The position numbers and the translations under genes are program-made. A stretch of 59,572 nt of DNA from Candidatus Saccharimonadales bacterium (lineage in GTDB: Bacteria; Patescibacteriota; Saccharimonadia; Saccharimonadales; 2-12-FULL-41-12). The stretch is taken from assembly GCA_041600715.1 (NCBI GenBank), contig JBFIJM010000005.1, forward strand, positions 1 to 59,572, read 5' to 3'. Under the pieces are notes generated by a model that was given only the letters and a program-made list of their open reading frames with translations, had not been told where the DNA came from and made no database searches. Within the stretch, counting starts at the first letter, position 1. Each line of letters opens with the position of its first letter. This document shows positions 28,815-58,290 of the stretch, piece by piece.

Positions 28815-28840
28815 GGCTTTAACAAATCGGAAATCGGAAA

Positions 28841-29428
28841 ATGCAAAAGAAAGTATGGGCTCTATATGAGCTTTTTTATCAGAAGCTTTACAATCAAGAA
28901 TTGTATATTTATTCTCCCTCAGAGAGTGCTTATAAGCAAACGGATAATTTCCTCAAGCTTCTGGATAAACAATACACATTAGAATCAATCGGAAATGATT
29001 TTCTGGTTACATATTTCATTTTTCAATTTGCTTACTGGAGCGAATTAGATATTTCAGCATACAATAAGAACATTGTTATATCCTACATAATAGGGCCTAA
29101 AGCATTCCAGCGATGGCTAGACAGAGACACCGAGTTTGACTATACAATAAATTTATTTCAGGTTAAAAAAACAAAGGTAACAAGGGGAGAGGCCTTAAAT
29201 CTAATTAAGGAGGTCAATGAGGAGCGACACGATGTTCTGAAACACGAGGAACAGGAAAAGACTAGATTTGTTAATACAGACAGACAATTAACTAATTGCA
29301 TAGAAAACACCACCCTTTACAACCCAAAATCAATACATTGTATTACGTGTAAAGAGAAAGTGACATGCAAGGAGCTACTAGAGGATAGATTCCCTCAGAT
29401 ATTTTATCATAGATTTAAAAGAAAATAA
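28841..29428 (+). CDS. Hypothetical protein with C-terminal Cys cluster, first gene of the replication operon
   Basis: C...HCITC....C motif, abutting the helicase gene. Confidence 0.6.
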   Translation: MQKKVWALYELFYQKLYNQELYIYSPSESAYKQTDNFLKLLDKQYTLESIGNDFLVTYFIFQFAYWSELDISAYNKNIVISYIIGPKAFQRWLDRDTEFDYTINLFQVKKTKVTRGEALNLIKEVNEERHDVLKHEEQEKTRFVNTDRQLTNCIENTTLYNPKSIHCITCKEKVTCKELLEDRFPQIFYHRFKRK

Positions 29429-30784
29429 ATGCAACTATCGGAAGATTTTATAATAGAGTTTTTTAAAGCCTGCGTCACAAGCAGGACCACCCTCGAGCTA
29501 GGATTGATTCACTTAAAGGATAATTTCCTGCCAACAGATGCTCACAAGAAGGTTTGGAAAAACATATCCCATATTTATGAGCTGAATGAAGTAGTCCCTA
29601 CAATCGGTGTTTTAAGTGAAAGAGTTAAGGGCGATGAAGAAGCAGAAGCTTTATTGGTAAAAATAAAACAGTGTAGAGTTACAGATAAAAAAGAAATGCT
29701 TATCAATCAGCTAGAGTCTTTTCTAAAAGAAATGAGATTCAAAGAGCTGTATAAAAAGGTGGGTACTTTATATAACCAAGAAAAAACAGAAGAAGCCATT
29801 GAATTACTGGCCAAGGAGAGTGAAGAGATATTTATGTTTAACTTCAAGAAAGACCTCCACTCAAAAGTATTTGGTCAATTCGAAGAAAGACAAACTGAAA
29901 GAAAACAAAGTGCCACTAATATAGATAAAACTAAAGTGCCAACCGGAATACACCCATTCGACCACTACACAAGAGGGGGTATATCAGCAGGAACCTCTGC
30001 GCTATTTTTGGCAAGGTCAGGGGTTGGTAAATCAACATTGTTAAGATGGCTAGGATTACATGCGGCTAGATTGGGCTTTAGAGTAGTTCATTTTCAAGCA
30101 GAGGGAACCGAAAGAGAAGCTATGGATGCCTACGATGCAGCGTGGACATCTATTGACTTAGAAGAGATGGAGCTAGGGAATATTCCTGCTAGTAAAAAAT
30201 CAAGGATTGAAAAAGTAAGAGCAGACATTGTGAATAGAAAGGGAGAGATATATGTCATCGCATCAGAGCAATTCGAGAGCATGTCCCTCAATGACTGTAG
30301 AGACCATCTTATAGAGGTAGAGAAAACTCACGGAAAAGTACACTTAGTGTTATTCGATTACCTGGAGATTTTTACAGTAAAAGGAAAATATTTTAACAGT
30401 GAGAATAGTGAAAGAAAAAGAAGAGAAGATATTGCGAATAAGATAACAAATATCGCAACAGAATTTAAGCTCGCTACTGCTACCGCTACTCAGGCTAACG
30501 ATATTAAGCCTGATAAATGGAATAGCCCTGACTATGTTATGACACGAAGTGATATAAGTGAATTCAAGGGTGCTTTAAAGCCATTCAGTTATTTTGCAAC
30601 TCTGAATCAGACTATAGATGAATATGAAGCGGGGGTGATGAGGATATTTAATGATAAGTTTAGAAAATACAAATCAGGGCAAACCTTTAGAATTTTCCAG
30701 TCAATGAGTAATAGTAGATTCTATGACAGCAAAAGAACCCTAGAAGCATTTTGGGATGAAGCATCAAAACAAACATCTAGATGA
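29429..30784 (+). CDS. dnaB: Replicative DnaB-like (SF4) helicase
   Basis: VPTGI..FD, Walker A ARSGVGKS, FQAEG, Walker B LFDYLE, and TATQAN. Confidence 0.9.
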   Translation: MQLSEDFIIEFFKACVTSRTTLELGLIHLKDNFLPTDAHKKVWKNISHIYELNEVVPTIGVLSERVKGDEEAEALLVKIKQCRVTDKKEMLINQLESFLKEMRFKELYKKVGTLYNQEKTEEAIELLAKESEEIFMFNFKKDLHSKVFGQFEERQTERKQSATNIDKTKVPTGIHPFDHYTRGGISAGTSALFLARSGVGKSTLLRWLGLHAARLGFRVVHFQAEGTEREAMDAYDAAWTSIDLEEMELGNIPASKKSRIEKVRADIVNRKGEIYVIASEQFESMSLNDCRDHLIEVEKTHGKVHLVLFDYLEIFTVKGKYFNSENSERKRREDIANKITNIATEFKLATATATQANDIKPDKWNSPDYVMTRSDISEFKGALKPFSYFATLNQTIDEYEAGVMRIFNDKFRKYKSGQTFRIFQSMSNSRFYDSKRTLEAFWDEASKQTSR

Positions 30785-31728
30785 AATTAGACTTGGACAT
30801 ATTAAAATCACTGATAGATGGAGGTCGTTATGATAATGACAAAAAGAACGTCTACGGAGTCTGCCCGTACTGCGGGGGAAACGAATTCGGCGTATCAACT
30901 CAGGATAACCATTTATTTGGATGCTTCAGGAAAAGTCAATGTGGGGTCACAGGAAATATTTTTAAGCTATTAAAGAAGCTAGACAGAGAGGACCTGCTCG
31001 AGGCAGAAGTAATCAGGTTAGGTGAAAAACTAGATATAGAGCTGGATAGAAATGAGAAGGATGAAGCAGATTACGAATTAACATCTCCGTCGATAAAACC
31101 ACCAATAGGTTTTAGGAGGGTGACTAAAAACGAATACTTAGAAAAAAGAGGGTTTACATCATTCGACAAATATACAGTAGGAACAACGCTATTGGATAAA
31201 GCATATAAAAACAGAGTGATTTTTCTAATTGAAGAGGACGGCGAGGTAAAAGGTTTCTTGGGAAGGGGGGTGAGTGATGATGTTAAACCAAAATATAAGA
31301 ATTCAAAATCTGACTTTGCCAAACTCCTATTAGGTATAGAGGAAATTGAAGAGAGCACCCACACACTAATATTAGTAGAAGGGCTCCTAGATAAGGATAA
31401 TGTAGACAAGCTGTTAAAACTAGATGAGCAAAGCGAAATCAAATGCTGCTGTACCTTTGGAGCGAAGGTGTCTGTTTACCAGATTATAAAAATGAAAATG
31501 TTCAATATAAAAAACATCCTCTTGTTTTATGAGGGAGATGTTATAGGCATTATCCAAAACTACGCTTTTAAGCTCGAAAAAGAGTTTGAGAAAGTATCAA
31601 TAATTCTACCACCTGAGGATAAAGACCCGGGTGATATTAATCTAGAAGAAATAGAAGAGAGCCTCGAGAAGAAGTATAGCCCTATGTATTTCTATAGAAA
31701 AAAATTAAATATTATTAAATTAAAGTAA
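30781..31728 (+). CDS. DNA primase (Zn ribbon plus TOPRIM)
   Basis: CPYC...CF....C zinc ribbon, YLEKRG, PKYKNS, LVEGLLD and KDPGD. Confidence 0.88.
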   Translation: MKLDLDILKSLIDGGRYDNDKKNVYGVCPYCGGNEFGVSTQDNHLFGCFRKSQCGVTGNIFKLLKKLDREDLLEAEVIRLGEKLDIELDRNEKDEADYELTSPSIKPPIGFRRVTKNEYLEKRGFTSFDKYTVGTTLLDKAYKNRVIFLIEEDGEVKGFLGRGVSDDVKPKYKNSKSDFAKLLLGIEEIEESTHTLILVEGLLDKDNVDKLLKLDEQSEIKCCCTFGAKVSVYQIIKMKMFNIKNILLFYEGDVIGIIQNYAFKLEKEFEKVSIILPPEDKDPGDINLEEIEESLEKKYSPMYFYRKKLNIIKLK

Positions 31729-31747
31729 AATTTCATATTTTTAGAGA

Positions 31748-32215
31748 ATGAGTGTAAGTAGAAAATTAAGCGTCACAGAACTATTCGATATACTTCAGCA
31801 AGAATACATCGTTTGCCAGCTCAGGGCGAAGATTTACCTAAAAGAGCATCTGAAGGAATATTGGGGTAAAGTGGCTGATGGCAAGAAAAGGAAAATCATA
31901 GATATAGCTAAAAAGAATTCACTACCATGCATCTTTGACCACAAAGAGATAGAAGGGGAGTACAACAAGAAGGTGTTTAGGGAAAAAGGCTATCCACATT
32001 TTTACTACACATCTAGAGAAGTGAAAGAGCAGCAAGAATATTGGGACCTGTGGAATTATTATTACAAAGATTCCCCCGTCAAAACATTCTTTGATGATAA
32101 AGAGCCTGAAGAGGGTGTGGTTATCAAAAACAATATAGAAGAAAAGCAAGTACTAGTCAAAATAGATAAAAAGGAATACCTGATATCTATGGAGAAAGTG
32201 ACTCGAATATTTTAA
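31748..32215 (+). CDS. Hypothetical protein with SH3/KOW-like C-terminus
   Basis: ORF between primase and polymerase with a beta-strand-rich C-terminus. TATTTTTA box at 31736-31743. Confidence 0.55.
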   Translation: MSVSRKLSVTELFDILQQEYIVCQLRAKIYLKEHLKEYWGKVADGKKRKIIDIAKKNSLPCIFDHKEIEGEYNKKVFREKGYPHFYYTSREVKEQQEYWDLWNYYYKDSPVKTFFDDKEPEEGVVIKNNIEEKQVLVKIDKKEYLISMEKVTRIF

Positions 32216-32227
32216 ACAATCGGTATT

Positions 32228-35200
32228 ATGAAAATCGAAAATTGGTGTGAGCTGAACAAGCTCAATTTCTCTTTTGTAGAGAAAAATTCTTCCCTAATAC
32301 AAGTAGACCAAAGGTCATTTGTTATTATTAAAAGCAAAAACGGGACCCTCTTTGATGAGGACTTCACATTACAACTTGACAAGTATGAAACTGATTTAAT
32401 CAGTCAATACAAAATCGAAAACTACCTTTTTGAATTCGGAGAAAAATGGTATTATAGCCTAATTGATGACGTCGAAGTAACATTAAGGCCTTTCAAGTAC
32501 ATCGGTAAAGCCAAACTATCCGATTATTTTGATTTCCCTTATTTAGGTATTCATGGAAAATATGACCTGTGTAATGGCAGTAGAGACTATGAAGATTGGA
32601 TTAAGAAAGCACAATTCCTAGGTATAGACACAATAGGTTTATGTGAAACTAATACACTAGCTGGGACACTAGCTTTTCAAAGTGCTTGTGAGAAAATGGG
32701 CATGGGTTACATCATCGGAGAAGAGGTTTTGGTCAGAGATACAAAACTAAACGAAGAGTTTTTTGTAAAACTGTACGTGAAAAATGATAAGGGGTGGGAG
32801 AACCTACTTCTGGTTAACTCAGAGGTGAATGTGCATAACGAAGAGAAATTCATCGAGCTAGATAAATTAGTAGAGTTTTCAAAAGACTTAATCTGCACAA
32901 CAGCCCACTTAAACCCAAAGCATATTAAGAAGATGAAATCGGCTTTCCCGGGACAATTGTATTTTCAGTTCGATACCGTAGAGTACCTTTCCGATGAAAA
33001 AGATAAAGAACATCTCCTGAACCTGAAAAATTATCTAGATAATTTCTTCGACGTAATTGAGCCAGTGATAATTTGCGATAGTTATTATTTAGATACAGAA
33101 GACCATCACATCCGCCATACTTTAAATAAGATAGGGAAAACGAATTTCTATAATCAGTCAGCCAATCAATATTTCAAATCAACAGATGATATCTTCTGTC
33201 AAATTATTCCATTATTCAAGGATAGTGACGAGAGGCTAGATACGTTAATAGAAAGAAGTCTAGCTAGTTTACAGGAAATCAAAGAGGCATGCGACTTCTC
33301 TATCGAAACAGGAGTGTTTCATTTACCTCAATATGAAATGACTAAAGAGGAAGAGAACCTCTACAGCGGTAACGAAGACTTGTTCTGGAGCTTAATAGAA
33401 AAAGCTGTAGATGAAAAGCTAGTCGACAAGGTAGATGATTTAGATGTCTACATGAAGCGGATTGAGAAAGAAGTATCCGTACTGCAAAAAGGAGGCTTCC
33501 TAGATTATTTTCTAGTATTATGGGATATAGTAAACTGGTGTAATACTCAAGGTATAATGTCAGGGGTGGGTAGAGGCTCCGCGGCAGGTTCGCTAGTAGC
33601 ATATTTACTAGGTCTAGTAAAAGTAGACCCAATTAAATATGACCTAATCTTCGAGAGATTCCTGAATGAGTCACGTTTAAAGAGCTCAGCACCTGATATT
33701 GATATGGATTTTCCTGGAAATAGGAGAGACGAAATAAAAAGGTATATAGAGCAGAGATATCAGCCTGAGTATGTAACCTCAATTGGGACATTCGGTACCC
33801 TAAAGATGCGAGCAGCCATAAAGGACTTAGGAAGACAAAAAGGGTTACAGCCTCAAATTGTAAATTACTTTACAGCAATGATTAACCCAGAATCCTCTTT
33901 TACAGATATATTTAGACAGGCAATGACAACGCCAAGGCTAAAGCAATTTGTTCAAGAGAACGCAGATTGGATTAACTCGATACCTCTATGCTATGGGCAA
34001 CCCAAGAACCAATCAATACATCCAGCAGGGGTGGTAATCGCTCCGAAAAAAGACCAACATGGAAGAGATAGAAATATGTACACCTGGATGCCTATCAAAA
34101 AAGTAGAAGGGGTGCTGGTTACTGAATGGGAGGGTTACTATATAGATATGGCTGGATTTTTAAAAGCAGACATCCTAGGTATCAGGCAATTGGAAAAATT
34201 CCAAAGCATTATTGACCTAGTGAAAGAAGAGTGTAATAAAGAAATCGTTTTTGAAGACATACCACTAGATGAAGAGCCAGTATATGAATTATTCAGAGCA
34301 GGGCTGAACGAAGATGTGTTTCAATTCGGGGCCGCTGGTCTAAAAGGGTATTGTCAATTACTAAAGCCTGATAATATCGAAGACTTAATTGCAACAGTAG
34401 CATTATATAGACCGGGGCCTATGGAAATCGGAGCCCACAAGAAATATGCTAAGATTAAAAACGGAGAAGCTTTTCCTGAATACCTCTTAGGAACAAAAGA
34501 GATTACTCAGTCAACTTATTCAAATATTGTTTATCAGGAACAAGTAATGAGTATTTGTGTGGCAGTAGGGGGGTTTAGTTTAGCAGAGGCAGATGATGTA
34601 AGGCGAGCGATGGGAAAAAAGAACATTGAATACCTAAAAAATTACCAAGAGCAATTCGTAACTAACGCTATATCGACAGGATATAATAAGATAGATGCCA
34701 TCAAGTTATGGAACAACCTAGAGAGTTTTGCATCTTATGCATTCAACCGTTCACATGCCACGGCTTATGCATTCACAGGATACTACTGCCAATGGTTCAA
34801 AGAAAATTATCCATTACAATTTTGGTTAACTTCGCTAAAATATGCTGATGCAGATAAAGTACCTTCGAGAATTAATGAGATACATAAGACATCTCCTATA
34901 AAAATATTACCTCCAGATGTGAATTATTCTCAGCCCGGGTATGTAAGTGATACAAAAAAGAATCATATTTACTGGTCTCTAACGTCCGTTAAGTTTATTA
35001 GCGAGAAAGCATCTGAGTCCATAATTGCAGAGAGGGAATCAGGGGGAGGGTTTCTTTCGCTAGAAGATTTTTATGCTAGGGTGGAGAAGAAAACTGTAAA
35101 TAAAAGAGTAATTTTAAATCTGATTTTATGCGGAGCCTTCGACCAAATCTATAACATAGATTCAAGTCAACCCGAGAAAAGATTTAGTTTAATTAAAGAA

Positions 35201-37595: not shown

Positions 37596-38072
37596 ATGAA
37601 ATACCAATCAACAAAACGCTTCGATAATTTTTCGATTGCACTAAGACAACACAAAGCATCACACAGCCACTGCGAATTACTTCATGGCTACGCATTCGAG
37701 TTTAAGATAACCTTTGAAAGTAATGAGGAGGGTATAGATGAACAGTTAGATGATATGAATTGGATAGTCGACTTCGGCGGCTTTAAAACACAGCCCGTAG
37801 GGAATGGATTAAAAGATTGGATGAACCTAATGTTTGACCACACTACCTTATTAGAAAAAGATGACCCTGTGTTAGATATTTTTCAACAACTAGAGCAGAT
37901 GGGTGTACTAAAGCTCCACGTTCTTGATAAAATGGGCGCCGAGAGCATAGCCAGATTAGTCTTTGATAAAATGAATGATGTATTAAGCAAGACAGATGGG
38001 GCGAGGTGTCGGGTACATAAAGTAGAATGCTTCGAGAACAGCAAAAACAGCGGTATATTCACAAGAAGTTAA
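37596..38072 (+). CDS. queD: 6-carboxy-5,6,7,8-tetrahydropterin synthase QueD (QueD-like)
   Basis: HC.LLHGY, W.VDFG, FDH and GAESIA motifs, next to queE/folE/queC. Confidence 0.85.
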   Translation: MKYQSTKRFDNFSIALRQHKASHSHCELLHGYAFEFKITFESNEEGIDEQLDDMNWIVDFGGFKTQPVGNGLKDWMNLMFDHTTLLEKDDPVLDIFQQLEQMGVLKLHVLDKMGAESIARLVFDKMNDVLSKTDGARCRVHKVECFENSKNSGIFTRS

Positions 38073-38112
38073 AGATAATCTATTGATTTTCAGAGAAATA
38101 TGTGGTTTTCAT

Positions 38113-38152
38113 AAATAAAATTTGTTTATGTGTGTCAATGTACATATCTTTA
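38113..38152 (+). promoter_or_regulatory. Phage promoter AAATAAAA-TTTG-N20-TATCTTTA
   Basis: TTTG at 38121-38124 and TATCTTTA at 38145-38152. The spacing matches Bacteroidota -33/-7 promoters. Confidence 0.8.
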
Positions 38153-38180
38153 TGGCTTATAAACACTTAAACATCGGAAA

Positions 38181-40244
38181 ATGAAAAAATCGGAACCAAT
38201 CAAACTAAGGCCATACCAGACCACTGATATTGAGAATATTGAAAAAGCCTGGGATACACACCGCTCGGTATTATACCAGCTACCTACGGGTGGGGGCAAG
38301 AGTGTAGTGCTTACAAAACTAGTAAGTGATTACCCGGATGAACAAATAATAATCTTTGCACATAAAAGGAGGCTATTAACACAACTCCATGAAAGGTTAA
38401 ATGGAATGGGGATTAAAACAGGAATACTGTTTGGTCAAAGGTCTGAGGATTTAGACTCGCCTGTGGTTGTAGTATCTATTCGTACCGCAGTAAATGATAA
38501 GCGCCTTGAAAAGTTAATGCTTAGGGAGTGGAATAGAGTGATTATAGATGAGGCACGTCATTCCCGTACTAGTAGCTATGATAAGGTGCTCACAGCATTA
38601 GTGAAAAAATATCCGATGCATAAACTCTTGGGTGTGGATGCAACACCTCATCGTAAGGATGGTAAAAGGTTAGATAAGCACTTCCAAGTTCTGGTAAATT
38701 CAGGAGAAACAACAGCCTCACTGATTGATAAAGGCTTTCTATCTAAATACAAAACCTTTCAGTCACCCATTGACAAAGAATCGCTGAAGGAGCAGGTAAA
38801 GGAAAACAGCAATGATTATCAATCTACTGAACTGAGCGGATATATGCGTCAACCAAAATACCTGGAATATATAGTCGATACTTACAAGAAGTTCGGTGAA
38901 GAAAAACAGGCTATTGCTTTCGCCGTAGACTTAGCTCACGCAAAAGACTTGAGAAACTGTTTTATAAATCATGGAGGCTATAAGCCAAGCGAGATAGTCC
39001 AAATTGATTCGAGGAAGAAGCCGAAAGAAATCGATGCAGCCTTTGCAGGATATGAAAAGAAAGAGATTCAGATACTAATCAATGTAGAAATGATTACTGA
39101 AGGAGTAGACCTTCCTGACACGGGATGTATAATAGGAGCCAGACCTACAAAGTCATTAACACTTTACTTACAGATTGTCGGCAGAGGAACTCGTATCAAA
39201 AATGACGGGAGTGACCTAATAGTACTCGACTGCTGTGGTTGGACCGAAGAATACGGAACATTAAGTTCTCCAAAAACCTGGTCGCTGAATCCTGACATAG
39301 ACCCAAATAACCCGAGGAAAGGAAATAAGATAGTGGGGAGGAATGCAGCAGGTGAGTACACTGAGGATTTAACTGAGTTCGTAGGAGAAATAGTTGAGAT
39401 GACTGCTGAGGAATATATCAGGAACTTATCCAAGGGTTTAGAGTATGCCGAGGAAGAAAATAAAAGTATTGATGACAAGATTCAAGATTTACTCACTGCA
39501 CTAGCAGAGCTTATTGTTAAGTTAATGAAGGATGGTCATGCTAATTTACAATACAAAGTGAGTATCAATTACCGTAGAGTTAAAATCGAATACTTTCACA
39601 AATCAATAAAGAAGGATGAGTATAACTACAGACATCATTCAATCGATTTAGAATTTGAAAAAGATGGCGATACATCAGAATTCTTTCCTCAAATGAATTA
39701 CGGGTATGATAAGAGTGAGACCAAAAACCAAATCATCGACTTACAAATAGCTCTAGGTAAAATGTCCGAGGTATTTAATAACAAGAAAAAGCTAGATGGG
39801 TTAGAAGATGACGCTAAGGGATTTATATCACAAATCACTGACTTAGAAGAATCTAAAATTAATCTGGATGAATTCAAGGAGCAGGCTAGAAGGTTTAAAA
39901 GAGAGCAGTGGGAGAAGAAAATAGATGACCACTTTATAGAAAGCAGCAAGTTTATGTTTGAAAAGACTTTGCGTTATAACGCTTTCTTCAGAGATTACAG
40001 TAGAGGTTTCAACATAGAAGGGGTTGAATTTCCGAAAGGAAAAATTAACAAGACCAATAATATAATGATTCTCCATAAGGTAAGAATGGATAGGAATTGG
40101 CGTTATAAGGAAGAAAACAAGCCCGAGTATACTGAATCAAGAGTAACGGAGACAAGGGAGTATATTAAAATAGATAAAATCCATGAATTACTTAAGGCCG
40201 GAAAGTGGGGTGAGGTAAAAAAAGAAGAATTAGAAACAGTTTAA
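38181..40244 (+). CDS. Superfamily 2 (DExH, RadD/UvsW-like) helicase with a long C-terminal extension
   Basis: LRPYQ, LPTGGGKS, IIDEARH, ATP.R.DG, ITEGVDLP and QIVGRGTR. Confidence 0.9.
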   Translation: MKKSEPIKLRPYQTTDIENIEKAWDTHRSVLYQLPTGGGKSVVLTKLVSDYPDEQIIIFAHKRRLLTQLHERLNGMGIKTGILFGQRSEDLDSPVVVVSIRTAVNDKRLEKLMLREWNRVIIDEARHSRTSSYDKVLTALVKKYPMHKLLGVDATPHRKDGKRLDKHFQVLVNSGETTASLIDKGFLSKYKTFQSPIDKESLKEQVKENSNDYQSTELSGYMRQPKYLEYIVDTYKKFGEEKQAIAFAVDLAHAKDLRNCFINHGGYKPSEIVQIDSRKKPKEIDAAFAGYEKKEIQILINVEMITEGVDLPDTGCIIGARPTKSLTLYLQIVGRGTRIKNDGSDLIVLDCCGWTEEYGTLSSPKTWSLNPDIDPNNPRKGNKIVGRNAAGEYTEDLTEFVGEIVEMTAEEYIRNLSKGLEYAEEENKSIDDKIQDLLTALAELIVKLMKDGHANLQYKVSINYRRVKIEYFHKSIKKDEYNYRHHSIDLEFEKDGDTSEFFPQMNYGYDKSETKNQIIDLQIALGKMSEVFNNKKKLDGLEDDAKGFISQITDLEESKINLDEFKEQARRFKREQWEKKIDDHFIESSKFMFEKTLRYNAFFRDYSRGFNIEGVEFPKGKINKTNNIMILHKVRMDRNWRYKEENKPEYTESRVTETREYIKIDKIHELLKAGKWGEVKKEELETV

Positions 40245-40255
40245 AAATAAAGTAT

Positions 40256-41020
40256 ATGGGAAAAACACAATTAGCAGTATCAGAGGCATTTTACTCTCTA
40301 CAAGGAGAAGGCAAGACAGTAGGTATTCCCTCTGTCTTCCTAAGATTAAAATCCTGCAACCTAACCTGCGGGTTCACACAGAAGCAGGCAAATAGTTATG
40401 TTAAGGGCGAAATTGATATAATGAAGAAAGACCTGCCTGATTCAACATGGTTCTGTGATACAGTAAATGTATTTCTAACCGGGCACAAGAAAGATTTCGA
40501 AGACGTCCTGCCAATTGACTTCGTACATAGGCTACGCCAAGGTGCCCACTTAATAGTTACAGGGGGAGAGCCTTTACTACAAAGAGAGGGGATTGTAAAT
40601 TATTTAACTTGGTTTATCAATAAGTATCAATTCACGCCTTTCGTAGAACTAGAGACAAATGGAACTATACCTCTGGAGAATTTAGGTGAATATATAGACC
40701 AAGTAAACTGTTCGCCTAAATTATCTAACTCTGGTGTTAAACTCGAGGCTAGATACTGCCCGAATGTTATAGAAAAACTGAATGAGAGGAGAGATACTAT
40801 CTTTAAATTCGTAATTTCATCCTCTCAAGATTGGCAGGAGGTTGTAGAGGATTATCTACCCTATATAGACAAAAAGAAAATCTGGCTCATGCCAGCAGCT
40901 TCAACGCTAAAAGAATTATTAATTAACAATAAAGTAACCGCTCAAATGGCTATCGACAATTGTGTGAATTTCACATCACGTATTCAGGTAGAGGTTTGGG
41001 ATAAAACAACAGGAGTATGA
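40256..41020 (+). CDS. queE: 7-carboxy-7-deazaguanine synthase QueE (radical SAM)
   Basis: FYSLQGEG...G.PSVFLRL..CNL.C...CDT, TGGEPLLQ, ETNGT, SPKL and KFV. Confidence 0.92.
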   Translation: MGKTQLAVSEAFYSLQGEGKTVGIPSVFLRLKSCNLTCGFTQKQANSYVKGEIDIMKKDLPDSTWFCDTVNVFLTGHKKDFEDVLPIDFVHRLRQGAHLIVTGGEPLLQREGIVNYLTWFINKYQFTPFVELETNGTIPLENLGEYIDQVNCSPKLSNSGVKLEARYCPNVIEKLNERRDTIFKFVISSSQDWQEVVEDYLPYIDKKKIWLMPAASTLKELLINNKVTAQMAIDNCVNFTSRIQVEVWDKTTGV

Positions 41021-41646
41021 TGGAAAAGAAACATGCACACCACAACAAACCTCTATCTAAAGAGGAGAAAGAGAAAATGATAGCGGAAGCATCTAAACAC
41101 TATGCTGGGTTTATGACAGCTCTAGGGATAGACCATGAAAATGACCCTAATAGCAAAGACACTCCGATGAGAGTAGCCAAGTCATTTGTTAATGACCTTA
41201 TAAAAGGGCGCTATCAAGAAGAGCTGAAAATAACCTCATTTGACAATATCGAGAAATATGATGGTTTAGTGTTCCAAGGGAATATTGATATGAAGTCAAT
41301 GTGCTCACATCATCACCTAGCTTTTGCAGGTGTTGTTCATGTAGCATACATTCCAGCACCTGATGGAAAAATCATCGGCCTATCTAAGCTGAATAGAATA
41401 GTAGAATATTACAGCAGGAGACCTCAAGTCCAGGAGAACCTCACTCAACAGATTTCTAAGCATATAGATAAGGTGTGTGAAAAGAACCTGGGTGTAGCAG
41501 TGTTAGTGGAAGCACAACATACTTGCTGCTCACACAGAGGTATTAAGCATGAGTCAACTATGAAAACATCTAAGCTGACAGGAGTGTTCTTAGATAATGA
41601 AAATCTTGCTAGACAAGAATTTTATGATTTTGTAAATAATTTATAA
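41017..41646 (+). CDS. folE: GTP cyclohydrolase I
   Basis: DTP.RVAK, SMCSHH, IGLSKLNR, RRPQVQE and H.CC..RG. Confidence 0.95.
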   Translation: MMEKKHAHHNKPLSKEEKEKMIAEASKHYAGFMTALGIDHENDPNSKDTPMRVAKSFVNDLIKGRYQEELKITSFDNIEKYDGLVFQGNIDMKSMCSHHHLAFAGVVHVAYIPAPDGKIIGLSKLNRIVEYYSRRPQVQENLTQQISKHIDKVCEKNLGVAVLVEAQHTCCSHRGIKHESTMKTSKLTGVFLDNENLARQEFYDFVNNL

Positions 41647-41658
41647 ATAAATAGAGAT

Positions 41659-42171
41659 ATGAAAACAGGAAAACAATTACTCGATGCGGGCATCATTACC
41701 GGAGAAATCAATGAAAAGAATGTCGCACAGCACGGCATCGACCTGAATGTAAAAAGAATTCAGAGAATGCTGGACGTAGGTTTTATACCAAAGGATGGTA
41801 AAACTAGGCTAGTTAGATATAGCGATGTAGAGATACACAAAGACAGCGAATCTAATATTGAGAAGTGGCACTTAGAGCCCGGAGCCTACAACGTAGACTT
41901 TGTTCAGGGATGTGATATCCCTAATGACAAAATGCTATTGCTAAGACAAAGAAGCAGTCTATTGAGAAATGGAACAATACTTCATTCATCAGTATTCGAC
42001 GCCGGCTTTAAAACTGAACACATGGGCTCTGTAATCATCGTAGCACATCCTATTGAAATAGAAGTAGGGGCTAGAATTTGCCAGGTATATGCGCATGATT
42101 CAAATCCTGTAGAAAATCTATATGAAGGTCAATTTCAGGGGGATAAGCAAAGAGAGGGGGAAGAGTCATGA
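41659..42171 (+). CDS. Trimeric dUTPase/dCTP deaminase superfamily protein
   Basis: GIDL, RSSL.RNG, VFDAGF, G.RICQ and C-terminal Y.GQFQ. Confidence 0.85.
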   Translation: MKTGKQLLDAGIITGEINEKNVAQHGIDLNVKRIQRMLDVGFIPKDGKTRLVRYSDVEIHKDSESNIEKWHLEPGAYNVDFVQGCDIPNDKMLLLRQRSSLLRNGTILHSSVFDAGFKTEHMGSVIIVAHPIEIEVGARICQVYAHDSNPVENLYEGQFQGDKQREGEES

Positions 42172-42941
42172 TTAAAGTATCACATGAAATACCGATAAGG
42201 TTGTTCCCTCAGCATGATTTTATTAATGACTACCCTTATGCATTAGCACATTTGTTAATGAAAGGAACAGAGCATTATGAATCGACATACGCGAAATTCT
42301 ATAAAGCTAAGCTTCAAACTGCAGAGTTTTCAATACTAGACAACAGCTGCTATGAGCTCGGAGAACCAATTGATAGTCACATCTTGTATGTGTTAGGTGA
42401 GGAATATAAGCCGACTCACCTAGTAGTACCTGATATGTATCAAAACATGGCTGGTACAGTAGGCTCAGTATTCAGATATATTGAGGAATATGGGCAAGAT
42501 TCTACGCCAAAATTCTTCGCTGTAGTACAAGGAACCACTTTAGAGGAGTACATCGAGTGCTTTGACGTCTTTGCAAAAGAACCCACTATTGATATAGTAG
42601 GCGTTAATTTTAAAACATTGTCTGATGGGAAGGGTAGACAGGATTTTTTACAGCACCTTATCGAGACAGGGAAAGATAAGATGAAAAAAATTCATCTATT
42701 AGGCTGCGAGAACGCCTCTGAATTTCTAGAGTATAGCAATGAGGTGATGAGGATAGTTCATTCTGTGGATACAAGCGCCCCGATAGTGCATGGGTGGAAT
42801 CTGAATAAGTTTACCAATGAGCCATTCAATTATGAAAAGCCTGATGAGAAGATTGCAGAGCATTTGTTTAAAACGCTAAATAGACAGCAGCGCGATATGA
42901 TTAGTCATAATGTGAGGATGTTCAGAAGCTTTATACATTAA
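42168..42941 (+). CDS. TGT-fold (DpdA-like) deazaguanine transglycosylase
   Basis: ILDNS.YE.G, VVPD, FAVVQG, HLLG and SVDTS align in order with tRNA-guanine transglycosylase motifs. No C-terminal Zn site. Embedded in the preQ0 cluster. Confidence 0.75.
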   Translation: MIKVSHEIPIRLFPQHDFINDYPYALAHLLMKGTEHYESTYAKFYKAKLQTAEFSILDNSCYELGEPIDSHILYVLGEEYKPTHLVVPDMYQNMAGTVGSVFRYIEEYGQDSTPKFFAVVQGTTLEEYIECFDVFAKEPTIDIVGVNFKTLSDGKGRQDFLQHLIETGKDKMKKIHLLGCENASEFLEYSNEVMRIVHSVDTSAPIVHGWNLNKFTNEPFNYEKPDEKIAEHLFKTLNRQQRDMISHNVRMFRSFIH

Positions 42942-42943
42942 TT

Positions 42944-43486
42944 ATGAGTAGAATAATATTGTCAGGTGTTCAGTCAAGTGGTAAATCAACCCTGCTGAAG
43001 GATATAAGATTAGATGTACCGGAATTAACCATCTATGACGAGATAGTGAGAACTCTAATTAAGAAGGGTGTCAAGATAAACAGAGAGGCTGACCATGAAT
43101 CTCAATGTGCGATATTAAAAGCGCATTACGAGAACTCTCTTGCGAATGATGAGTTTATCTCCGATAGAGGGGCAATAGATGCCTTTGTTTATGGCACATG
43201 GAGTTATCTGAATGGGGATTTTACGTACGAGGAGCATAAAATTCAGGAGCAGATTTTCTTAGGGTGTCTACCAAGATACACACACAACTTTTATTTACCA
43301 ATAGAATTCAAGGCTATTGAGGATGAAGTAAGAGATACAAATGAAGAGTATCGAGAAGAACTGGAGAGAATCTACTACATGACTTATGACAAGTATGACA
43401 TACCCTTTGTAGAGCTAAGGGGCTCTGTGGATGAGAGGCTCGGTATTTTCTGGAGCAATGTGATTTATAAAACAAAGCAGAAATAA
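42944..43486 (+). CDS. P-loop nucleotide kinase-like protein (AAA_28/NadR/TMK-like)
   Basis: SGVQSSGKST Walker A, ISDRGAID, and a D.VR lid. Confidence 0.8.
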   Translation: MSRIILSGVQSSGKSTLLKDIRLDVPELTIYDEIVRTLIKKGVKINREADHESQCAILKAHYENSLANDEFISDRGAIDAFVYGTWSYLNGDFTYEEHKIQEQIFLGCLPRYTHNFYLPIEFKAIEDEVRDTNEEYREELERIYYMTYDKYDIPFVELRGSVDERLGIFWSNVIYKTKQK

Positions 43487-43520
43487 ACTTTGTTTATGTA
43501 AAATAAACAAAGTAAATTTA
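43481..43520 (+). promoter_or_regulatory. Promoter AAATAAAC-TTTG-N20-TAAATTTA with an overlapping 11-bp inverted repeat
   Basis: TTTG at 43489-43492 and TAAATTTA at 43513-43520. ACTTTGTTTAT (43487-43497) and ATAAACAAAGT (43503-43513) are inverted repeats. Confidence 0.75.
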
Positions 43521-43523
43521 GGT

Positions 43524-44063
43524 ATGAGAAAATCGGAGAATATTTCAAAGTACAATTTGGCGTGGCAGCTATGTCGTATTTCTATCAAAGGGAGTGGGTT
43601 TAACTGCGAAGAGAAGATATTAAAAGTCTTTTCATATTTCGAGGAAAAACCATCTCTTCAAAGGTGGGAGCGTGTCTATAACTTCTTGGAGGGACTTCAA
43701 AGAGGGTATAAGGCTGCAAGGATGGATAATGAGATAATGCTAATCCAAACACATCTCGACTGCTTTAAAATAAGTGAAGGTCTAGAATTAGAGGAAGAAG
43801 AAACTGACGACTGGGATTCTATTGAATGGAATGCTATGAATTTAGGAATCAAGCTCTACAAAGACCTTTTCAAGAGAAGTGAGAAGTGGCTCAAAGGTGG
43901 ATATTTTCATAAAGAGCAAGAGGCTTTTGTTGATAAATTACATGAGGTGCTAATAAAAGGAGGCTGGGTGTACTCGGCTCACGACAGACATAATATAAAG
44001 AGATTAAGAGAACTAAGGGCTAATTCATTAACTATGAAGAATAAGCATAATTTCTTTTTTTAA
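43524..44063 (+). CDS. Hypothetical helical protein inside the que cluster
   Basis: 179 aa ORF filling the gap between the kinase and queC. No recognised motif. Confidence 0.6.
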   Translation: MRKSENISKYNLAWQLCRISIKGSGFNCEEKILKVFSYFEEKPSLQRWERVYNFLEGLQRGYKAARMDNEIMLIQTHLDCFKISEGLELEEEETDDWDSIEWNAMNLGIKLYKDLFKRSEKWLKGGYFHKEQEAFVDKLHEVLIKGGWVYSAHDRHNIKRLRELRANSLTMKNKHNFFF

Positions 44064-44080
44064 CATTTAAAACAATAACA

Positions 44081-44749
44081 ATGAAAAAAGCAGTAGTAAT
44101 ATTTTCAGGTGGACAAGACTCCACAACATGCCTAGGATGGGCATTGAATAGATATGATGTAGTAGAGGCTATAACATTCAACTATGGACAGAAACACTCT
44201 GTCGAATTAAAATGTGCCGAGATAATCTGTGAAAAAGCAGGGGTAAAACAAACAGTAGTTGACATCTCTTTCCTGGGTACAATTGTGGAAAGCGCATTAA
44301 CGTCCAATGGAGATGTAAATAAGATAAACGATAAAGGGCTCCCGGCATCATTTGTGCCAAACAGAAATCAACTCTTCATCACACTTGCACACGCCTATGC
44401 TCAGAAAATAGGTGCAGAGACATTAATCACAGGAACTTGCGAAACTGATTTCAGCGGATACCCTGATTGCCGACAAGTATTCATCGATTCGATTGCATTG
44501 TCTTCTAATCTAGGTTCAGATTCTAAAATCAAAATCGAAACTCCACTAATGTACCTAAACAAAGCGGAGACCTTTAAAATGGCTCAAGAAGAGGGTTGCC
44601 TAGAAGAAGTAATTGAATTAAGTCACACTTGTTATAACGGAGTGAGGGATATATTGTATGACTGGGGTTATGGATGCAATGATTGCCCTGCCTGTGAATT
44701 GAGAAGAAAAGGTTGGGAAGAGGCGTCTAATCAATCAATTAATGATTAA
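44081..44749 (+). CDS. queC: 7-cyano-7-deazaguanine synthase QueC
   Basis: FSGGQDS, FNYGQKH..EL, FVPNRN, GYPDCR and TCYNG...GC..CPAC..R. Confidence 0.96.
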   Translation: MKKAVVIFSGGQDSTTCLGWALNRYDVVEAITFNYGQKHSVELKCAEIICEKAGVKQTVVDISFLGTIVESALTSNGDVNKINDKGLPASFVPNRNQLFITLAHAYAQKIGAETLITGTCETDFSGYPDCRQVFIDSIALSSNLGSDSKIKIETPLMYLNKAETFKMAQEEGCLEEVIELSHTCYNGVRDILYDWGYGCNDCPACELRRKGWEEASNQSIND

Positions 44750-44753: not shown

Positions 44754-44793
44754 AAATAAAATTTGTTTATTAAAAATAAAGTAATTATATTTA
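44754..44793 (+). promoter_or_regulatory. Phage promoter AAATAAAA-TTTG-N20-TATATTTA
   Basis: TTTG at 44762-44765 and TATATTTA at 44786-44793. Confidence 0.8.
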
Positions 44794-44820
44794 GGGAAAT
44801 ATTTAAAAACTAAAATCGTT

Positions 44821-47486: not shown

Positions 47487-47516
47487 GGGGGAAGGGCGTT
47501 ATCTTCCCCCATTTTT
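47487..47516 (+). terminator. Intrinsic terminator after the SSB gene
   Basis: GGGGGAAG-ggcgttat-CTTCCCCC followed by ATTTTT. Confidence 0.75.
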
Positions 47517-47535
47517 AACAACTTAAAATCGGAAA

Positions 47536-48561: not shown

Positions 48562-48568
48562 AATCGGT

Positions 48569-53484: not shown

Positions 53485-53530
53485 GGTTTATTCTCAAACT
53501 GTTAGAAATGAAGGTTTTAGGATATTCTAA

Positions 53531-53570
53531 AAATAAAATTTGTTTATTTCAGCAGAAAGACTTACTTTTA
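53531..53570 (+). promoter_or_regulatory. Phage promoter AAATAAAA-TTTG-N20-TACTTTTA
   Basis: TTTG at 53539-53542 and TACTTTTA at 53563-53570. Confidence 0.8.
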
Positions 53571-53593
53571 TGTAAATTAAAAATAATCGGAAA

Positions 53594-53933: not shown

Positions 53934-53938
53934 GTACA

Positions 53939-55949: not shown

Positions 55950-56650
55950 TGGCAAAGAAAGGATTCACAGGTACACCAATTACCGAGATAGCGAACGATA
56001 AGACTAAGAAAGTTTTCTTCTTTTTACTTACATATAAAAATGGTAAGGTAAAAAGATATGAGAATTCTAACTTTAAGGAGCTAGAGAAGAAAAGAAAAGA
56101 GGTGTCCGATAGAGAGGCTATGAGAGTTAAAAAAGCATTCGAGAAAAAAATACCAAAAGAGGATATTCAAATATTAAAGAAAAGTGCAGGGGAGGGTAGA
56201 GGAAAGAAAAAGACTGTGGTGCGCTCAGGGAACATAGAGTTATTGCAATTAAGAAAGAAAGTAATTCTAGAGGCTAAAATTAAAGGGCTTAGCGACATAC
56301 AAATCAAATCATTAATCTCGACTGAATTTGAGATAAGCGAGGTGCATGTATCCAGGGAGATTGCATTAATAGAAGAGGAGATAAGAAGTCAGGCTATTGT
56401 ATCTCATGAGGAAATACTACTCAGTCATCTAACAAAATATGAATTACTATATTCCAAGTTCAAAGAAGAAGGGGCAGATGCTTATGCATTGAAGGCATTA
56501 AGGAATAAAGAGAATGTAGCAGGGCTTCATGACCAGACTGTAAACATTCAAATAAATAATTATATGGAGAGCGAATTTAGCATAAATTTACTACCAAAAG
56601 AAAAGCAGGAAAGGCTAAAAGAATTATTAACCAAAGTAAAAGTTACCTAG
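55949..56650 (+). CDS. HTH protein, terminase-small-subunit-like (paralogue A)
   Basis: HTH-like GLSDIQIKSLISTEFEISEVHVSREI segment and an AL.AL..KE...GLH....NIQINN motif. Confidence 0.45.
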   Translation: MAKKGFTGTPITEIANDKTKKVFFFLLTYKNGKVKRYENSNFKELEKKRKEVSDREAMRVKKAFEKKIPKEDIQILKKSAGEGRGKKKTVVRSGNIELLQLRKKVILEAKIKGLSDIQIKSLISTEFEISEVHVSREIALIEEEIRSQAIVSHEEILLSHLTKYELLYSKFKEEGADAYALKALRNKENVAGLHDQTVNIQINNYMESEFSINLLPKEKQERLKELLTKVKVT

Positions 56651-57565
56651 ATGTCACTCACATACATATTCAAAACAGGGAAGCACAAGGATAAACAAAT
56701 CAGTTGGGTTAAGAAAAATGATTTCAAATACCTAAAGGATGTTAATAAGGGTAAAGTCAAAATAAAGCTGACACAGCGAATTAAGGATTTTATCGAGAAA
56801 ATGTGCGAGGATAAAATAGAAACCTCGACAGTAGTCGTCGATGAGGTGATACAGCTATACAAAGAAGGTAACAAGAGGACAGACATACATGAAATACTAG
56901 TAAAGAGAGATTACACCCCTGACTATGCCAATTTTATAATAAATAGTGCTAGCAGTAAAATTATTCAAGGATTTGAGGAGGACAAGAGTTATTTAATAGG
57001 GCTACACCTAAAAAGATACGACAGCACTCACAACAAGCATATGGATACGGCAGCCACTCTGGTGGGCTTCAAGCATAAGTATAAAAGGATAGAGCATTAC
57101 ATCCTAGCAATGGATTCCTTAATAGCAAAAGAAAGATTGCTAGGACTTCATTCGAAAAAATATAATATCCAGCTAAACAATTTCATTAACCGGGATAGAG
57201 TGCAATCCACAAGCTCAGGGTACAGCTTTGATTCACTATCAACAAAAGAACTTACAGAGCTAGCTCAATTAATAGCAGAGACTAAAGTAGCACAACAAGA
57301 TAAACAGGAAATCCAATTATTTGATGAAGCAATGATTCAAACAGGCAAAATTGTACAAGACATTGTCGAAACAATAGAAGACATTGACCACGAGGAAGTC
57401 GAATCTCCTTTGACAAAAGTACACCATAAAGACATTTTTGGTAGTAAATTAAAAGAGGTCCAAAAGAAAACAGGAAACACTATTGATACTGTAGAGGATA
57501 AAATAAGGCAGTCAAACAAATCAGCCTTTGAGTTAATAATGAATAAGCAGAAAAATGAGAAGTAG
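56651..57565 (+). CDS. Paralogue B of the preceding protein
   Basis: Shares HL..Y, AM.SL..KE...GLH....NIQLNN. The N-terminus has F..GKHK...I..V...D..YL. Confidence 0.45.
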   Translation: MSLTYIFKTGKHKDKQISWVKKNDFKYLKDVNKGKVKIKLTQRIKDFIEKMCEDKIETSTVVVDEVIQLYKEGNKRTDIHEILVKRDYTPDYANFIINSASSKIIQGFEEDKSYLIGLHLKRYDSTHNKHMDTAATLVGFKHKYKRIEHYILAMDSLIAKERLLGLHSKKYNIQLNNFINRDRVQSTSSGYSFDSLSTKELTELAQLIAETKVAQQDKQEIQLFDEAMIQTGKIVQDIVETIEDIDHEEVESPLTKVHHKDIFGSKLKEVQKKTGNTIDTVEDKIRQSNKSAFELIMNKQKNEK

Positions 57566-57782
57566 AGGCAGAAGAAAAACCATAAGAATACAGCATGCAG
57601 TAATACTGATGTTATTAATAGGACTGGCGTCGTCACATCTTTATGTGAGAAAACAAAGACAATTAGATAAGATAAGAACAGATGCAGCCTACAATAGACT
57701 CTGGAAAAAATACGATTGGAAGACCAAAAGGCTAAGAATTTACACGGAGCTAGTTTACACTAAGTTGTACAATAACAAATAA
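57555..57782 (+). CDS. Small basic single-pass membrane protein
   Basis: One hydrophobic helix flanked by Arg/Lys. Confidence 0.5.
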   Translation: MRSRGRRKTIRIQHAVILMLLIGLASSHLYVRKQRQLDKIRTDAAYNRLWKKYDWKTKRLRIYTELVYTKLYNNK

Positions 57783-57797
57783 TTAAGTAGTTTGTAG

Positions 57798-57837
57798 AAA
57801 TAAAATTTGTTTATGTCTCGAAAGGTATGTATTTTTA
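57798..57837 (+). promoter_or_regulatory. Phage promoter AAATAAAA-TTTG-N20-TATTTTTA
   Basis: TTTG at 57806-57809 and TATTTTTA at 57830-57837. Confidence 0.8.
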
Positions 57838-57861
57838 GGTTCTAATTTAAAATCGGTAAAA

Positions 57862-58290
57862 ATGGAAAAACAAGTTAAAGAAAGCCCAGTAAGAGATTAC
57901 ACTCACTGGGCAAAGAGATTTGATACAGTTAAACACATTACAAAATCAAGTGTTTACGGATTTAATAGTCACGGGACCTTCTGTGGTTCTTCAGCAGCAT
58001 GCTTAGGCAATAACTATGCTATGTCTGATATGGAGGTGTGTCCCGAGTGCATTAAGCTAAAGCCAAGGTTATTAAAGGATATAGCAAAAGAAATTTATCA
58101 AGACTGGGGTCGAGTTCACCCATATGCGTCACCTTATCTAGGCGCAATGTCTACGCTAGACTACATACACGAGAATTATCATTTAGATAGTGCAGACAGT
58201 GTAGTGAGATATTTTCTTAGTAATGCAGGAACCTGGAGAGGTAAGGTTGCAAGAAGAGTGAAGCTAGAACTAAAAGCAATGCTCAAGTGA
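57862..58290 (+). CDS. Early-type protein: N-terminal His/Cys Zn-finger fused to a conserved helical phage domain
   Basis: H...FC....C...CPEC followed by IA.EI..DW....PYA.PYL.AM...YFLSNA.TWRG..ARRVK.ELK. Confidence 0.65.
   Translation: MEKQVKESPVRDYTHWAKRFDTVKHITKSSVYGFNSHGTFCGSSAACLGNNYAMSDMEVCPECIKLKPRLLKDIAKEIYQDWGRVHPYASPYLGAMSTLDYIHENYHLDSADSVVRYFLSNAGTWRGKVARRVKLELKAMLK

Follow-up and report, generated by a model that had tools for sequence, protein, structure and literature searches.

In phage T4, RegA acts through translational operators at the AUG of many phage messenger RNAs (mRNAs), and regA also regulates its own mRNA. T4 RegB is an endoribonuclease whose GGAG sites lie in early leaders. 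Leader stabilisers and enhancers are represented by the STAB-SD (SD, Shine-Dalgarno) of Bacillus thuringiensis cryIIIA and by the epsilon of T7 gene 10. Here, we analysed a short word, AATCGG, that recurs immediately before start codons in a 59,572-nucleotide (nt) stretch of phage DNA, which is referred to below as the window (contig JBFIJM010000005.1 of assembly GCA_041600715.1, deposited as Candidatus Saccharimonadales bacterium). An original prediction, made from the sequence alone, had taken the word for a post-transcriptional signal of replication and early genes. Our results point, tentatively, to an mRNA operator that would belong to a phage lineage.

The word resembles the RegA sites in that a short, putatively single-stranded word overlaps or abuts the AUG of numerous phage mRNAs, several of which encode proteins of replication and recombination. 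It differs in that no RegA-family protein was found among the phage proteins scanned, that it has a CG, in contrast to the AU-rich, poorly defined RegA sites, that it also stands on late structural genes, including the capsid gene, away from the AUG, and that the host is without SD-based initiation. Like the RegB sites, it is a leader word of four to six letters just ahead of starts, is found in sense only and marks a set of phage mRNAs; unlike them, it is not the SD itself, as there is no SD here, its letters are different (AATCG(G)), and the scanned proteins include no RegB homologue. With STAB-SD and epsilon it shares the use of short leader words near or far from the AUG, sometimes in multiple copies, and a perfect 16S complement exists (nt ~719-724); unlike in those systems, this complement is not the 3' tail, variants of the word ignore base-pairing rules, and the host genes sampled do not use the word. 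New in comparison with the T4 RegA/RegB kind of leader word are the word itself, the SD-less host, the joint marking of replication and capsid genes, and the lack of a recognisable reader.

According to passages of PMC6847099 and PMC7797042, Bacteroidota leaders are A-rich and SD-less with A at -3, and the promoters carry -33 TTTG and -7 TAnnTTTG boxes. The phage obeys these rules: its leaders are A-rich and without an SD word, TTAAAA and TAAAA are the top enriched leader words, likewise in two Bacteroidia genomes, and TTTG and TAnnTTTA(G/T)G boxes are present. AATCG(G) is an additional C/G-containing word within this A-rich context that those passages do not contain, and no description of an AATCG word or a similar leader motif in Flavobacteriia phages was found in the passages returned from the open-access literature (PMC, bioRxiv). 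The nearest named phage by DnaE is Chryseobacterium phage MA9V-3 (41% identity), followed by Cellulophaga phages phiST, phi13:1 and phi19:2 (37%) and Tenacibaculum phage Larrie (35%). Given these nearest phages and the A-rich, SD-less leader style, we regard the window as part of a phage of a Bacteroidota-type host.

Results

Placement of the word at start codons

In the window, 67 open reading frames (ORFs), all on the + strand, were taken as genes; their starts are first-ATG calls from an ORF list and our own script rather than from a trained gene finder. All sites of the original prediction were present in the DNA. The copies before or just after start codons are as follows.

28824..28837, + strand: tandem AAATCGG-AAATCGG (AATCGG at 28825 and 28832), 3 nt before ATG 28841; leader AAATCGGAAATCGGAAA-ATG
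32218..32223, + strand: AATCGG within the 12 nt that separate stop 32215 from the dnaE ATG 32228 (AATCGG, TATT, ATG; DnaE by Pfam)
32233-32237, + strand: second AATCG of dnaE, in codons 2-4
38173..38177, + strand: ATCGG, 3 nt before ATG 38181 (DEAD/ResIII helicase); leader ACATCGGAAA-ATG
38188-38193, + strand: second AATCGG of the helicase, in codons 3-5 of gene 38181
47527..47532, + strand: AATCGG, 3 nt before ATG 47536 (SbcD-like phosphoesterase); leader AAAATCGGAAA-ATG; no promoter box seen
48562..48567, + strand: AATCGG, taking up the 7 nt between stop 48561 and ATG 48569 (SbcC-like AAA_23 protein); leader AAAATCGGT-ATG
53585..53590, + strand: AATCGG, 3 nt before ATG 53594 (ORF of 53 amino acids (aa)); class promoter (see below) upstream
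57851..57856, + strand: AATCGG, 5 nt before ATG 57862 (142-aa protein, phrog_13953); class promoter upstream
44814..44819, + strand: AATCGT, 1 nt before ATG 44821 (210-aa protein)
18340..18354, + strand: tandem AATCGT-AAA-AATCGT (18340, 18349), 5 nt before ATG 18359 (126-aa protein of the structural module)
13051..13056, + strand: AATCGT, 2 nt before ATG 13059 (weak match to a tail-tube-initiator family)
2761..2766, + strand: AATCGA, 5 nt before ATG 2772 (95-aa protein); near-consensus class promoter at 2684-2698 upstream
43531..43536, + strand: AATCGG in codons 3-5 of gene 43524

By count alone, AATCGG was unremarkable in the window (21 copies on both strands against 14.6 +/- 3.5 expected; 6 of 100 shuffles reached 21). 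Their placement was strongly non-random: 7 of the 16 + strand copies lay within -20 to -1 of the 67 starts, a 45-fold enrichment (p 3.6e-10; 1.5e-6 after Bonferroni correction). The same region held 8 of 29 + strand copies of ATCGG and 12 of 56 of AATCG, and these three were the sole enriched leader words not made of A and T alone. When each leader was shuffled separately, the AATCGG count averaged 0.13 with a maximum of 3, and none of 5000 shuffles reached 7, which confirmed the predicted enrichment.

The strand preference was examined in the whole phage, which we put together from the reverse complement of contig C15 (C15rc), the window and contig C24 (92.9 kb, close to the 103 kb of MA9V-3). 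Half of its sense AATCGG copies (14/28) were wholly non-coding, against 1.5 expected from a non-coding share of 5.4% (p 3.3e-11); the reverse complement on the same strand was non-coding in 1 of 6 cases, which was not significant. Gene 13059 has the sole intergenic antisense copy in its leader (CCGATT, 13018-13023), whose CGATTA could pair with TAATCG at 13049-13054, a possible hairpin masking the word of that gene.

Around the ATG of 106 genes, the start positions of AATCG peaked at -20 to -1 (12 copies) and at 0 to +9 (4 copies), with 0-3 copies in other 10-nt bins, and the control CGATT was flat. The word ends 0-5 nt before the ATG at seven window genes and at four more with an AATCG variant, and four genes carry it at +5 to +7 after the ATG; the copies after the ATG include those of dnaE (ATGAAAATCGAA), the helicase (ATGAAAAAATCGG) and gene 43524 (ATGAGAAAATCGG).

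The word was not confined to replication and early genes, as had been supposed, because it is also present at structural genes, that of the major capsid protein among them. In four structural-gene leaders on C15, the capsid leader included, the word finishes 21-43 nt short of the ATG, close to where the intergenic stretch begins. On the same contig (C15rc 9813-9870), a 9-codon upstream ORF begins at the ATG of AATCGG-ATA-ATG and runs, with its stop, into codons 2-3 of a 369-aa gene (C15rc 9842); there, the arrangement of word, 3 nt and ATG fits the mini-ORF and not the main gene.

Core, variants and conservation in relatives

Relatives were collected at several distances: L030 (DnaE 89%), L001/L031 (DnaE 80%, helicase 71%) and L074-L078 (capsid protein 88-66%), as well as L002, L033 and L032 (helicase 47, 46 and 40%) and MA9V-3. 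A helicase profile search gave one added relative in IMG/VR and one close relative among 25 loci in metagenomes.

Within -25 to -1 of the pooled phage and close relatives, AATCGG was enriched 15.8-fold and AATCGT 7.8-fold. In the distant relatives, the enriched forms were AATCGT (7.9-fold) and AATCGA (3.3-fold), and AATCGG was not enriched (0/25). These enrichments define a conserved core of AATCG with G, T or A as the sixth base, instead of the AATCGG first proposed. TTAAA or AA usually stands before the word, and AAA often comes after it; no further conserved position was found up to 45 nt upstream that would extend it to a longer promoter-like consensus. Tandem copies have periods of 7 at 28824, 9 at 18340, 8 in the capsid leader, and 5, 7, 9 and 13 in MA9V-3, and such spacing of 5-13 nt suits a flexible single strand better than a DNA dimer site.

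The leaders of orthologous genes compare as follows.

Gene 28841: L030 AAATCGGGAATCGGAA-ATG (tandem kept); L031 ACATCGGAAA-ATG (one copy); MA9V-3 AAATCG-ATG
sbcD: L001 AAAATCGG-ATG; MA9V-3 AAAATCGAAC-ATG, with a hairpin ahead
sbcC: MA9V-3 ATATCGTC-ATG
Helicase (gene 38181): L031 AAAATCGG, 9 nt before the ATG; L002 ATAATCGAAATC-ATG
Gene 44821: ATCGTT-ATG in the window and in L031
dnaE: site degenerate in L030 (AATCAG) and L031 (AATTGG); L032 AAAAAATCGT-ATG

The word is thus kept at orthologous leaders down to MA9V-3, where it is retained at 3 of the 5 window ATCGG genes that have an orthologue there (28841, sbcD and sbcC). In MA9V-3 leaders (-20 to -1), AATCG occurred 14 times among its 158 copies (4.1-fold, p 1.4e-5) and ATCGG in none of 44. 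The antisense word was always lower in the non-coding DNA of the distant relatives. The MA9V-3 hairpin before sbcD (CACGA-TCT-TCGTG) stands shortly before the AAAATCG word.

All six major-capsid leaders compared carry AATCG, ~30-60 nt upstream of the ATG, and the remainder of the leader is unalignable. There are two copies in the phage, L074 and L076, one in L077 and L078, and four in MA9V-3. The capsid word begins at most ~35 nt from the upstream stop or overlaps it (in L076, 31 nt away and behind a hairpin). An in-frame start other than AUG behind the capsid-leader word (ATT, 11 codons) was considered and rejected, as it is not conserved in L074.

A tandem AATCG-AATCGTT-ATG also precedes an orthologous gene of 130/146 aa in L002 and MA9V-3 (alignment Z = 40). 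Its protein starts with MVTGFE (L002 4554; MA9V-3, the reverse complement of L003, 40400), and no orthologue of it was found in the window.

Absence of the word from sampled host leaders

G221 and G208, two complete Bacteroidia genomes from a class-level sample (400 kb each), share the TTAAAA leader style (9.4- and 4.3-fold). None of their 297 and 160 AATCGG copies fell in a leader (328 and 332 genes, 660 leaders), and ATCGG was at most 0.4-fold. In Cellulophaga phage phi13:1, a distant relative with a Flavobacteriaceae host, ATCG was present in 0 of 55 leaders, with 343 copies in the stretch. The 12-mer AATCGGAAAATG occurred 0-7 times per genome in 301 Bacteroidia genomes (at least once in 186; the tally includes one unpublished genome, G183, with 1 match) versus 3 times in the 59.6-kb window. 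Among 10 inspected host matches of this 12-mer, the ATG opened an ORF of at least 60 aa once, and that one looks internal to a longer frame.

In the bin that contains the window, ATCGG was not enriched in the leaders of contig C1 (6/967, 0.8-fold), and 4 of 283 AATCGG copies lay in leaders (2.3-fold, p 0.097) in the other 28 contigs pooled, C15 and C24 included. Two unrelated repeats inflate the raw AATCGG counts of their contigs: a tandem repeat on C3 (- strand, ~6796-6890), with a 20-nt unit present at least five times and five AATCGG 20 nt apart, and a run of GAATCG hexamers on C4 (11931-11960).

As the sampled genomes need not include the true host, the claim is that the word was not found in the genomes searched. 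Judged from these leaders, it is not a general host leader feature in the sampled possible hosts, a possibility that would have undone the original prediction, and it looks specific to the phage lineage.

A putative mRNA operator

Several copies have no promoter box before them: those of dnaE and sbcC stand in spacers of 12 and 7 nt, and that of sbcD stands behind a terminator-like hairpin. This GC-rich hairpin (GGGGGAAG ... CTTCCCCC, followed by a T run; 47487-47516) lies between gene 46025 and sbcD, with arms at 47487-47494 and 47503-47510, and the word comes 10 nt past the T run (47512-47516). Copies in intercistronic spacers of 7 and 12 nt fit a signal at the RNA level. At gene 28841, the distance from the promoter box to the word is 8, 8 and 18 nt in the window, L030 and L031, and that from the word to the ATG is 3, 2 and 3 nt. 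The gap to the ATG is 1 nt at gene 44821 in both the window and L031, and 3, 0 and 2 nt at sbcD in the window, L001 and MA9V-3. A kept ATG gap with a changing box distance at these genes ties the word to the start codon and not to the promoter.

On account of the strand specificity, the tiny intercistronic spacers, the kept ATG gap, the copies after the ATG and the irregular tandem spacing, we read the word at the RNA level. We tentatively prefer, while granting it somewhat less than an even chance, that AAUCG(G/U/A) is an mRNA operator for a sequence-specific RNA-binding factor linked to the phage lineage and acting on translation initiation. The element would be a short single-stranded sense element, AAUCG plus G, U or A, located in the initiation region (mostly -12 to +10 around the AUG) or near the 5' end of longer leaders. 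A factor encoded or recruited by the phage lineage would read it and set the efficiency or timing of the ribosome start on the marked genes, with the operator overlapping the ribosome landing site. In a host without SD pairing, initiation would need an open A-rich leader, and a protein sitting on AAUCGG 0-5 nt before the AUG could gate the 30S subunit. For the replication genes, we lean towards repression or timing, of which a block of 30S binding would be the simplest form; for the multi-copy distal sites of the capsid gene, taken to be the most highly expressed gene, activation, stabilisation or processing would be equally conceivable. That the reader is a protein, that it is linked to the phage and in which direction it acts is what we infer from these patterns.

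Several findings weigh against this operator. In the C15 structural leaders, the word is away from the initiation region. The two closest relatives, L030 and L031, have lost the dnaE site, and the enrichment of AATCG in the non-coding DNA of single distant relatives is modest (19/158 versus 10.9 expected in MA9V-3, p 0.01; 6/27 in L002; 10/37 in L033). In partition-function folding, the word was unpaired with a probability of 0.38-0.71 and did not exceed its surroundings in this respect. There is also a link with a promoter class, whose predicted transcripts have the word at +2 to +15, so that the role of the word may lie at the DNA level or be linked to the 5' end. Finally, no RegA, RegB, CsrA, RRM, KH, S1 or S21 match was obtained in scans of 95 proteins (37 + 58; window, C15 and C24) against Pfam-A at E <= 0.001 and of 27 against PHROGs, the Pfam scan leaving out 11 window ORFs, mostly large structural proteins; and the predicted fold of the best candidate reader, the gene 28841 protein, has a mean pLDDT of 50.5 from a 4-sequence alignment and is unusable.

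This candidate is the product of the first gene of the replication module, which carries the strongest ATG-proximal site (the tandem). The 195-aa protein has four conserved Cys (invariant C153, C167, C170 and C176) and a basic tail. As in T4 regA autoregulation, the phage gene with the strongest site could itself encode the regulator, and by likeness to self-regulating translational repressors we would guess that it is the reader; a role in replication would suit its place ahead of the DnaB-like helicase equally well. Sequence searches with it returned no match in the PDB and, in the Atlas, unnamed clusters with a best score of 0.79. As for CsrA-type sites, GGA occurs in 5 of the 8 window ATCGG copies (ATCGGA), no CsrA match was found in the same scans, and the AATCGT/A of distant relatives contain no GGA. 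Known cis-regulatory RNA families gave no Rfam 15 match at the gathering score in the window. The post-transcriptional nature of the signal is thus in keeping with the spacer copies and the kept ATG gap, and RegA- or RegB-like action stays an analogy, with no homologue among the 95 proteins.

A possible endoribonuclease target

We considered next best, though unlikely, that AAUCG(G) is the target of a sequence-specific endoribonuclease of phage or host, like T4 RegB on GGAG. Cleavage beside the AUG would inactivate replication mRNAs; in the distal capsid leader, it would release the capsid message, in stable form, from the cistron upstream, so that a single activity would cover both geometries, 0-5 nt before the ATG and near the upstream stop of the capsid genes. 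The restriction of the word to the sense strand and the hairpin ahead of the sbcD word in both the window and MA9V-3 would agree with such processing. However, no RegB-like or other ribonuclease candidate is linked to the word, the sole nuclease-type matches being a DEDDh exonuclease and a NinG-like protein on C24, and the 14 of 28 sense copies in coding sequence would also be cut unless context matters.

Promoter class and a possible role in DNA

The conserved element ATAAAATTTGTTTAT holds the -33 TTTG of one promoter class. Its copies in the window are as follows.

28795..28809, + strand: exact copy of ATAAAATTTGTTTAT
38115-38129, + strand: exact copy
44756-44770, + strand: exact copy
53533-53547, + strand: exact copy
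57800-57814, + strand: exact copy
2684-2698, + strand: copy with one mismatch
43483-43497, + strand: copy with one mismatch

Allowing up to two mismatches on both strands, 9 matches were counted versus 1.05 expected, which none of 100 shuffles reached, and the two-box pattern TTTGTTTAT-N(0-24)-TAnnTTTAKG gave 5 matches versus 0 expected. A TAnnTTTA(G/T)G box lies ~20 nt past ATAAAATTTGTTTAT; at 28795, the -7-like box adjoins the element directly. These promoters match the Bacteroidota -33/-7 architecture as given in passages of PMC6847099, in which the -7 box (TAnnTTTG) covers -12 to -5.

It is accordingly conceivable, if quite unlikely, that the word is an asymmetric DNA-level operator or promoter-proximal element at ~+2 to +15 of this promoter class, recognised by a transcription regulator or, through pausing, by RNA polymerase itself. 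All seven + strand copies of ATAAAATTTGTTTAT are followed by the box and then, ~6-19 nt past it, by an AATCG word before or at the ATG (genes 2772, 28841, 38181, 43524, 44821, 53594 and 57862). At gene 43524, the -7-like box (TAAATTTAGG) abuts the ATG and the word lies inside the ORF, as if positioned from the promoter; by the transcription start site spacing rule of PMC6847099, the leader of this mRNA may be very short or absent. In the phage, 8 of 101 TAnnTTT[AG] boxes had AATCG 3-22 nt downstream versus 1-4 for three control words, and the association was at background level in two host genomes as well as in MA9V-3 and phi13:1.

A purely DNA-level role is at odds with the dnaE, sbcC and sbcD copies, which lack a promoter box, and with the box distance that shifts between relatives (8 to 18 nt) at a kept ATG gap. 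Upstream of the word, no conserved sequence keeps a fixed distance to it. The word was neither a sigma-A promoter box nor at a constant spacing from one, since its distance past the -7-like box varies between 6 and 19 nt. The tandem spacings of 5, 7, 8, 9 and 13 nt are likewise unsuited to the helical phasing of a DNA-bound dimer.

Complementarity to the ribosome

The 16S 3' tails read ..GGAA(C/U)ACCUCCUUU(C/U)U.. in five Bacteroidia genomes, ..GGAUUACCUCCUUUCU.. on bin contig C1 and ..GGAAUACCUCCUUCAU.. in G001. None of these tails was complementary to AAUCGG, which bears out the earlier statement that the word is not complementary to the canonical anti-SD; the alternative anti-SD of Chryseobacteria, AUCUCAUU, as given in a passage of PMC7797042, did not match it either.

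We think it improbable that AAUCG(G) is a phage-owned SD substitute that recruits the SD-blind Bacteroidota 30S through pairing with the CCGAUU of an exposed 16S segment beside the cleft for the SD helix or through a phage adaptor bridging the word and the platform. If true, such a substitute would be a private translation-initiation channel for the phage lineage. Very improbable is direct pairing itself, in which AAUCGG would bind 16S nt ~719-724 (5'-CCGAUU-3', helix 23a junction/bulge) as an SD substitute or standby site on ribosomes with a sequestered anti-SD. CCGAUU is the only perfect complement in the 16S sequences examined (nt ~719-724 in our own Escherichia coli numbering), is present in 4 of 6 Bacteroidia 16S genes (CCAAUU and CCGAUA in the other two), and falls in columns of the Rfam model that are junction and helix 23a bulge, mostly unpaired. 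Work by Yusupova and colleagues from 2001 is said to place a '723 bulge loop' at the cleft holding the SD helix. A single proximal copy and multiple distal copies resemble the use of SD and STAB-SD. No mention of the '723 loop' was found in the passages of PMC7797042 consulted.

Host genes, however, do not use the word, with no AATCGG in the 660 leaders of two genomes that carry CCGAUU, and neither does phi13:1. Wobble-compatible variants are not enriched (AATTGG 1.5-fold, GATCGG 0, AGTCGG 0), the varying sixth base (G, T or A) breaks the sixth pair, and the complementarity is not extended, the base after the word being A more often than U. By our own arithmetic, a chance 6-mer complement in 1.5 kb of ribosomal RNA is expected about 1 time in 3. 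Direct 16S pairing, the boldest reading, is thus weakly contradicted.

A possible absence of function

That the word is a functionless by-product of composition, shared leader ancestry or start miscalls could draw on its ordinary whole-window count, on the simple first-ATG calls and on the close relatives, whose sites are not independent because they share ancestry, but it is close to refuted by the 5000 shuffles that never reached the leader count, the strand asymmetry in non-coding DNA (14/28 versus 1/6) and the recurrence in six of six capsid leaders and at sbcD and sbcC of MA9V-3, where the flanking leader is unalignable. The probability left over belongs to something outside the readings considered.

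The phage and its bin

The window is the entire contig C5 of a 30-contig, 1.59-Mb bin (G000). By Pfam and PHROGs, its first 28 kb encode baseplate and tail proteins. The window also encodes a DnaB-like helicase, a DnaG-like primase and DnaE, a class II ribonucleotide reductase, a DEAD/ResIII helicase, SbcD-like and SbcC-like proteins, a Holliday-junction resolvase and a UvrD-like helicase, and QueD, QueE, FolE and QueC of the 7-deazaguanine pathway. No tRNA was found in the window, and megablast found no near-identical phage record. The start of a 651-aa ORF is ambiguous (GTG 18750 or first ATG 19110), and the word is at neither.

Reverse-complemented C15 joins the window start (C15rc 26033-26157 equals window 2-126, with one mismatch thereafter) and encodes an SU10-like major capsid protein, sugar-modifying enzymes and a NUDIX protein. 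C24 (7.3 kb) encodes a portal, the DEDDh exonuclease and the NinG-like protein, and shares the leader style and the word, with two AAAATCGGAAAT(C/T)-ATG sites. It probably belongs to the same phage; its place is deduced, whereas the C15 join is demonstrated.

The bin (C1-C30) is mixed. C1 (771 kb, 42% GC, with a 16S gene) has AGGAG and TATAAT before starts, most of the remaining contigs have TATATA/AATATA there, and C18 and C20 resemble pieces of SD-using phages. The phage was probably mis-binned, and C1 is unlikely to be its host because it uses AGGAG and TATAAT. A QueC search of genome contigs for a host gave matches of mixed phyla, with no Flavobacteriales among them.

The 7-deazaguanine set spans 37596-44749 (QueD-like 37596, QueE-like 40256, GTP cyclohydrolase I 41017, dCTP-deaminase-like 41659 and QueC 44081), interspersed with genes without assigned function, 42168 (phrog_19058) and 43524. 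This gene set suggests that the phage modifies guanine in its DNA, like related Cellulophaga phages. The scans run on the phage proteins revealed no DpdA-type transglycosylase.

Significance

How Bacteroidota choose start sites without SD pairing is still open, and gene control in their phages is hardly known. A six-letter word with clear statistics, present in ~20 target leaders of one phage and kept in the cultured MA9V-3, offers a testable handle on SD-less post-transcriptional control, and the promoter class ATAAAATTTGTTTAT ... TAnnTTTAKG outlines a candidate phage regulon. As a compact regulatory part, the word might also find use in Bacteroidota genetics. Should it prove to gate translation, phages of Bacteroidota would have their first described operator set of this kind.

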